A stretch of DNA of 64,000 bases from Okamejei kenojei (taxonomy: Eukaryota). The DNA lies in the NCBI GenBank assembly GCA_035221665.1, contig CM069146.1, positions 46,686,001 through 46,750,000 on the forward strand. Direction: 5' to 3'. The translations under genes were made by a program, and so were the position numbers. This document shows, one piece after another, positions 52,469 to 53,205 of the stretch. Within the stretch, counting starts at the first letter, position 1; each line of letters begins with the position of its first letter. Under the pieces are notes generated by a model that was not told where the DNA came from, searched no databases, and worked only from the letters and a program-made list of their open reading frames with translations.

Positions 52469-52590
52469 AATGCAGTGCGCCATAATCTTAGTCTTCACAA
52501 GTGTTTTGTTCGAGTAGAAAATGTTAAAGGGGCAGTGTGGACAGTGGACGAAATAGAATTCCAAAAGCGAAGGCCACAAAAGATCAGTGG
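52469..52590 (+). CDS. FOXP1: FOXP1 canonical forkhead C-terminal exon, equivalent to human exon 18/18a ([41 protein letters not shown])
   Basis: tatag acceptor ending 52468, gtatgt donor at 52591. 122 bp, phase 0 to 2. Confidence 0.97.
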
Positions 52591-52863
52591 GTATGTCCAC
52601 CATATTTAATTGCTTAAACCTCGTAGCATAGCTAGCTCCCCTGTAGCTTAACGTACAGCTCATGGCTGCTTGCAGGTGACGGAGGGAAGGGCGTTGCTTG
52701 GTTATATTCTTGCTGCCTAGGAAAATGTGGGGCATGGAAAAGCAAGTGCGTTGTCACAGAGTCCTTTCCCCTTATTTTCCAGTCTGTGTTTGCCATGGTG
52801 CCCATCCCCATGTCCTTTCCATCTGCTTGCCTAGTGTTCTGCATCACGTGCTTCTGCTTGCAG

Positions 52864-53035
52864 GCTACACATATTAACCCCACAAATCATTTGCTTATTT
52901 CATTTTTTTTTTCTCCTTTTCCTTACCCACCCCTTTTTGTGTGTGTGTGTGTGTGTGTGTGTTTGTTCTCTCCCAAATCCCATTGCCCTTGTTTGTCTTC
53001 CCATTGCATCTGCTTGACTGCTGCTATAATCCCAG
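52864..53035 (+). promoter_or_regulatory. Extended 3' splice-site region of exon 18b: AG-exclusion zone, candidate distal branch point, long polypyrimidine tract, TG repeat and YGCY cluster
   Basis: No AG between 52864 and 53033. TATTAAC at 52872-52878 is followed by U/C-rich tracts. About (TG)12 at 52938-52962; TGCT x3 within 25 nt of the acceptor. Confidence 0.65.
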
Positions 53036-53205
53036 GGTGCCATACGCACCAATTTGTCACTGCATAAGTGCTTTATCAGAGTAGAGGATGAGTTTGGGTC
53101 CTTTTGGACTGTTGATGATGAAGAATTTAAACGTGGTCGCCATATTCAACGAGGCCGTCCTCGAAAATACTACTCCGATGAAAGCTTTGATGAACAATTC
53201 ACACA
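53036..53205 (+). CDS. FOXP1: FOXP1 alternative mutually exclusive forkhead exon, equivalent to FOXP1-ES exon 18b ([57 protein letters not shown])
   Basis: cccag acceptor ending 53035, gtaaga donor at 53206. 170 bp, open frame, same phases (0 to 2) as the exon at 52469-52590. Paralogous [11 protein letters not shown] and WTVD motifs; closely matches mammalian exon 18b as I recall it. Confidence 0.93.

Follow-up and report, generated by a model that had tools for sequence, protein, structure and literature searches.

The question raised by this locus is whether the second of two neighbouring forkhead exons in the 64,000-nucleotide stretch of Okamejei kenojei DNA analysed here (the window) is an intact alternative to the first and, if so, how old the arrangement is and how the choice between the two exons might be made. 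The coordinates of these exons, A and B, and of the other features discussed are collected in Table 1. The initial annotation had placed exon B 445 nt after exon A with matching phases and an open frame, and had described the replacement of NAVRHN by GAIRTN and of ENVKGAVW by EDEFGSFW; the coordinates are exact and the peptide differences are as described. Each exon runs from phase 0 to phase 2, both frames are open, the AG/GT ends are intact and exon A has the 122 nt of its human counterpart. The exon upstream of A is identical to catshark FOXP1 (P0008) at 33 of 33 aligned residues. The two stop codons that had been predicted for the wrong combinations are likewise present: inclusion of both exons leads to TAG at 53082-53084, 121 nt before the exon B junction, and skipping of both leads to TAA at 56836-56838, 13 nt before its own junction, with a further exon following beyond the end of the window. 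For both stops the usual nonsense-mediated decay rule for premature stops is relied on here; given the 121 nt to the junction in the one case and the further exon after the TAA in the other, both would fall under this rule.

Table 1. Positions of the exons and other features discussed (window positions unless a locus is named).
Feature	Position	Strand	Remarks
Exon upstream of A	46722..46823	+	ends in phase 0; AG/GT ends
Exon A (human exon 18 equivalent)	52469..52590	+	122 nt; TAG acceptor, GTATGT donor; helix NAVRHN
A-B intron	52591..53035	+	445 nt; 16 YGCY, U-rich tract, TG repeat at 52938-52961
Candidate distant branch point TTAAC	52874..52878	+	putative; 159 nt upstream of exon B, heads the AG-free zone
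Exon B (taken as orthologue of human exon 18b / FOXP1-ES / isoform B)	53036..53205	+	170 nt; CAG acceptor, GTAAGA donor; GAIRTN
Putative AT-hook-like RGRPRK	53150..53167	+	exon B residues 39-44
Common downstream exon	56782..56851	+	phase 2 start; NPSIIKN...
FOXP4-like exon A	L016 ~9230-9352; G000:C24 near 42911230-42911350	minus (L016)	123 nt
Probable decayed exon B relic	L015:858-1072; G000:C19:1930857-1931071	+	in FOXP2 intron after exon A; collinear peptide and DNA similarity

The exons belong to FOXP1, and a catshark FOXP1 isoform maps exon by exon along the window. Over the exons upstream of A, summed tblastn identity (sums that include some intron overhang) is highest against Leucoraja FOXP1, at 361/392, and falls to 82-88% against the other 21 chondrichthyans and to 69-77% against 7 bony vertebrates. 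This pattern identifies the source as a skate-like cartilaginous fish and bears out the cartilaginous origin that had been proposed. At least three FOXP loci are found in the genome. The C24 locus is presumably FOXP4-like, judging by characteristic residues; one extra base in its exon A breaks the frame, reflecting either an error in the assembly or a gene that is broken. On C19 lies FOXP2, with 32 of 34 residues matching human FOXP2 in PDB 2a07.

Judged by its sequence, exon B is orthologous to human FOXP1 exon 18b, the FOXP1-ES-type exon for which it had been taken: the 122 and 170 nt sizes are the same, and its peptide is identical to the gorilla isoform at 50 of 56 residues, including all of the first 45, and to catshark at 54 of 56. 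Human exon 18b (mouse 16b) resembles it in host gene, order, sizes, phases and helix-3 changes; the differences lie in the gap between the exons, 374 nt between the human exons of 122 and 170 nt (PMC8373072 supplement) versus 445 nt here, and in the last 11 residues, 6 of which are not the same. Exon B carries the helix-3 changes Asn-to-Gly and His-to-Thr together with an 18b-type peptide, and the two altered residues (Asn, His) contact bases in the FOXP2-DNA structure, according to PMC3002244. Mammalian FOXP1-ES is marked by stem-cell-specific inclusion and MBNL control; the likeness of the window exon to it is one of sequence and exon arrangement. The explanation that best covers these observations jointly, and which is very probably correct, is that exon B is an intact, ancient FOXP1 switch exon, alternative to A, that likely alters the DNA read by the protein.

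Among 84 chondrichthyan FOXP1 proteins from 22 species (a count in which 15 of the 44 members of the largest cluster were among the matches listed), 78 carry A, five carry B, one carries neither and none carries both. The B isoforms are RefSeq computational models from Scyliorhinus torazame (n = 2; X2 and X6) and Chiloscyllium punctatum (n = 3; X1, X4 and X9), and all five splice TWK/GAIRTN.../NPSIIKN exactly as predicted for the window. These isoforms share the exon and its junctions with the window, with 54 of 56 residues identical in the catshark, and differ in that their hosts are sharks and the window is from a batoid. The concern that annotation may miss exon B is partly borne out: RefSeq holds B isoforms for 2 of the 22 species, and none of the 12 batoid proteins among the matches listed carries B. 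Mutual exclusion in Okamejei kenojei is predicted from the frame logic together with the RefSeq models of the two sharks. An intact B exon was not found in the paralogues, a search of the genome giving one B-type exon among 9 matches, and in 119 proteins into which exon B is spliced the upstream exon is never of the FOXP2 or FOXP4 type.

Given that the B isoform is absent from those 12 batoid proteins, and that FOXP exons are under strong nucleotide-level constraint, it is possible that exon B is conserved yet silent, or nearly silent, in skates and rays and is kept for an enhancer or splicing reason. However, this is improbable: the exon has an open frame, two intact splice sites and a peptide identical to the primate isoform over residues 1-45, and the FOXP2 copy in the same genome, with its stops, frameshifts and missing donor, illustrates the form that decay takes. 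Exon B could also serve mainly as an alternative last exon, or be used with the next intron retained, giving a short protein. The frame does end one codon beyond the donor, with a TAA directly past it, and the fly B exon is a last exon (PMC4070984); nevertheless, neither AATAAA nor ATTAAA occurs within 3.1 kb downstream, the first being at 56335, and all five shark B models join the next exon, which makes such a use very improbable.

The claim that only one-or-the-other splicing is productive holds for the main splice sites and has to be limited to them, because a weak GT 4 bases into the intron, at +5, gives 126 + 170 nt, which keeps the phase and permits double inclusion in frame. Nine database models join A and B, three of them through a GY linker, and raise the possibility that the exons are not strictly exclusive. 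That this +4 donor joins A and B is, however, extremely improbable, as it fits the consensus at its GT only, the nine records are gene-prediction-style with several named hypothetical, and both exons occur together in 0 of the 84 chondrichthyan proteins. As a separate observation, the read-through frame at positions 52591-52603 encodes GYVHH; database models of mammals and squamates have the same peptide and an eel has GYVRH, and the end of the intron just after the exon A donor, which contains the +5 GT, appears to be conserved.

The initial annotation was right to hold that the switch predates the split between bony and cartilaginous fishes, but it understated an age that was already in print: the exon has been dated to the base of Bilateria, by way of a tandem duplication (PMC3002244), and the event is listed as 'Bilateria' in the supplement of PMC8373072, the methods of which imply, without stating it, that a copy had been observed in a shark, ray or lamprey. 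The animals in which Santos et al. (PMC3002244) showed the exon are fly, mouse, human and zebrafish, and sharks go unmentioned in their main text. Exon B itself is therefore one more species of a known case whose age is already established, and, the exon having been dated to Bilateria, a role for it other than pluripotency was already implied in print. Both isoforms have been found in six adult mouse tissues or cell types (PMC3002244), and fly isoform B has been tentatively tied to operant self-learning (PMC4070984). Batoid embryos offer a setting in which the function of the B isoform could be studied away from the stem cells of mammals.

An exon-peptide search of chondrichthyans and invertebrates, as had been suggested, found B exons in both, the profile search reaching those of nemertean, wasp, fly, beetle, butterfly, mosquito, whitefly, copepod, snail and amphioxus. 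Window exon B shares 34-35 of 45 residues with the B exons of four insects and a nemertean, and 31 of 45 with that of amphioxus; window exon A matches those invertebrate B exons at 22-23 of 40. In a tree of 20 rows and 40 columns, window B falls together with the insect (n = 4) and nemertean (n = 1) B exons, apart from every A exon (98/99, from a bootstrap that is not fully settled; the A/B split, with one change, occurs in 100% of 200 bootstrap trees), in keeping with the statement in the initial annotation that insect FoxP has a similar alternative exon. Amphioxus was left out of the tree as its sequence did not fit the extraction pattern.

Comparison of helix 3 between these exons separates two changes. 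The bilaterian FoxP isoform B described in PMC3002244 is, like the window exon, a tandem duplicate of the second forkhead exon with His-to-Thr, and isoform B was modelled there as losing the base contacts made by Asn and His. The first position of the helix is Gly in 93 of 93 spliced vertebrate B isoforms, and in invertebrate-type hits it is Asn (n = 84) or Ser (n = 3), with 10 of the 145 hits outside the pattern; amphioxus has Asn. Invertebrate isoform B thus keeps Asn at the start of helix 3, whereas window exon B has Gly. The Thr count is no test, Thr having been built into the search pattern. As far as these sequences go, His-to-Thr and the motif RGRPRK are common to protostomes and vertebrates, and Asn-to-Gly, seen only in jawed vertebrates, would be bracketed between amphioxus and the jawed-vertebrate ancestor (in a sample of jawed vertebrates, amphioxus and other invertebrates) and would thus have arisen before sharks and bony fish split. 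It is the skate exon that brackets this step between amphioxus and the shark/bony fish split. The amphioxus B exon (P0352, Branchiostoma FoxP isoform X9) has Tyr, not Thr, at the His position and keeps RGRPRK.

Two side findings, this motif and a relic of exon B in FOXP2, matter more than exon B itself. Of 111 distinct B peptides, which range from insects to mammals, 101 contain RGRPRK, and of 74 A stretches none does, a comparison to be read with the fact that exon A ends at residue 41 and the motif occupies exon B residues 39-44. The shorter RGRP is found in 105 of the 111 B peptides, always at residue 39, and outside B exons only once in about 191,000 residues. An AT-hook is a GRP core flanked by basic residues (PMC11354804), and RGRPRK corresponds to this description in having a conserved GRP core with basic flanks. 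The Pfam AT_hook profile (PF02178) gave 9.9-13 bits against a cut-off of 17.4, and so below the curated score, in 4 of the 8 B-type proteins scanned, and no match in the catshark or gorilla isoform among the eight. Like the HMGA-type AT-hook, exon B has a GRP core with Arg/Lys next to a major-groove-binding domain (PMC11354804); it differs in having no Pro before RGRP and in falling below the Pfam cut-off. On sequence grounds RGRPRK is a lead, not AT-hook family membership. FOXP1 is absent from the main text and text supplement of PMC11354804, and the AT-hook-like motif of exon B was not found described in the literature covered, which did not include the primary FOXP1-ES paper. It is conceivable, with the balance tipping slightly the other way, that exon B adds a real AT-hook which would offset the lost helix-3 contacts and form part of the FOXP1-ES specificity switch. 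Through the motif, a single mutation would suffice to test how DNA is recognized by FOXP1-ES and insect FoxP-B after the loss of the base-reading residues.

The second of these findings concerns the paralogues, in which synteny sets FoxP1/3 against FoxP2/4 (PMC11998571). Exon B has been described as lost ('degenerated') in FoxP2-4, with no remnant reported in the main text of PMC3002244; here, by contrast, a remnant was detected in FOXP2, and none in the FOXP4-like gene, where exon B alignment scores for the intron were at background (27 and 21). The relic was first hinted at by two weak collinear matches in the FOXP2 intron after exon A, and the queries were chosen after this hint had been seen, but its strand, order and spacing are those expected beforehand. 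A frameshift-aware alignment of catshark B residues 1-45 with the 1139-nt intron reached a score of 54 at L015:858-970, with 17 of 37 aligned residues identical; the controls rose no higher than 40 in 52 window chunks, 47 in 25 reverse complements and 43 in 60 shuffles, so that the relic lies above 137 of 137, and under stiffer penalties it scored 49, the best of 52 chunks reaching 39. The DNA of the exon B 3' end, donor and flank aligned with L015:1005-1072 at 48 of 68 identical columns (score 50), the control maxima being 34 (102 chunks) and 30 (13 FOXP2-locus chunks), and 0 of 500 shuffles reached 50. The relic lies about 385-390 nt after FOXP2 exon A, compared with 445 nt in the window and 374 nt in human, carries stops, frameshifts and a short internal duplication, has no GT donor, and is single-copy at the sensitivity of the search used. 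This feature is most likely the same exon as FOXP1 exon B, in decayed form. A likeness between the A-B intron and the FOXP2 intron was weak, being equalled in 3 of 300 shuffles, and was not counted.

The A exons of the two genes (52469-52590 and L015:352-473) are identical at 112 of 122 nt, with a 64-nt identical run, and at 30 of 36 degenerate codons versus 12 of 28 and 12 of 21 in the two preceding exons. This near-identity points to a shared splicing constraint or to gene conversion, and together with the relic it suggests that in FOXP2 the A/B arrangement outlasted the duplication by a long time. Whether FOXP2 kept a working exon B for long and lost it late and lineage-specifically, so that some cartilaginous or early-branching jawed fishes may still make FOXP2-B, is evenly balanced; the rival explanations of the relic are non-coding constraint, slow chondrichthyan evolution and gene conversion between the paralogues. 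A search for an intact FOXP2-B protein found none: among 24 hits, the 7 short open frames examined did not resemble the relic. The relic was not found described in the literature covered, which left out most subscription papers. With it the inferred loss could be dated in the genomes of sharks, rays and chimaeras, and a possible intact FOXP2-B isoform follows as a prediction.

The surroundings of exon B suggest how the choice of exon might be made. Exon B is preceded by a 170-nt AG-free zone, compared with 28-37 nt at neighbouring acceptors, and the TTAAC at the head of this zone is a candidate distant branch point. The peptide read through at this site, HINP, is met again ahead of exon B in P0007, P0012 and P0078 (a marmot model and two open frames), which, at the level of peptides and not of DNA, suggests that the element is conserved. 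The A-B intron holds more YGCY, which we take to be the MBNL motif, than any of 1223 other overlapping 445-nt windows (16 versus a mean of 4.9 and a maximum of 15), and the matching FOXP2 and FOXP4-like introns hold 8 each; the count of 16 is not significant against dinucleotide shuffles, being reached in 409 of 2000. For mammalian exon 18b, a change of DNA preference from GTAAACAA to CGATACAA, stem-cell-biased inclusion and repression by MBNL have been reported (PMC11701043, PMC4978528, PMC13044900). By analogy, the likeliest arrangement is regulated repression of B combined with decay of the wrong combinations. Exon A would be the default choice, and exon B, behind its long AG-free zone, likely distant branch point and YGCY-rich flanks, would be included once a repressor such as MBNL is low; transcripts with A and B, or with neither, would be removed by nonsense-mediated decay. 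The resulting B protein would have lost two helix-3 base contacts and would likely have gained a minor-groove contact through RGRPRK.

Other causes of exclusivity were considered and rejected. The folding of the A-B intron gave a z of -1.32, with 12 of 100 shuffles as good, and complementary 10-mers between the flanking regions are almost all A/T runs, which disposes of RNA structure and of pairing between these regions. Steric exclusion was rejected for the TTAAC site, which lies 287 nt from the exon A donor, far more than the roughly 50 nt that splicing needs between donor and branch point. Upstream of exon B, the relatives' read-through frames show CVCV-like runs near the place of the TG repeat, and a UG-rich element is possibly conserved there.
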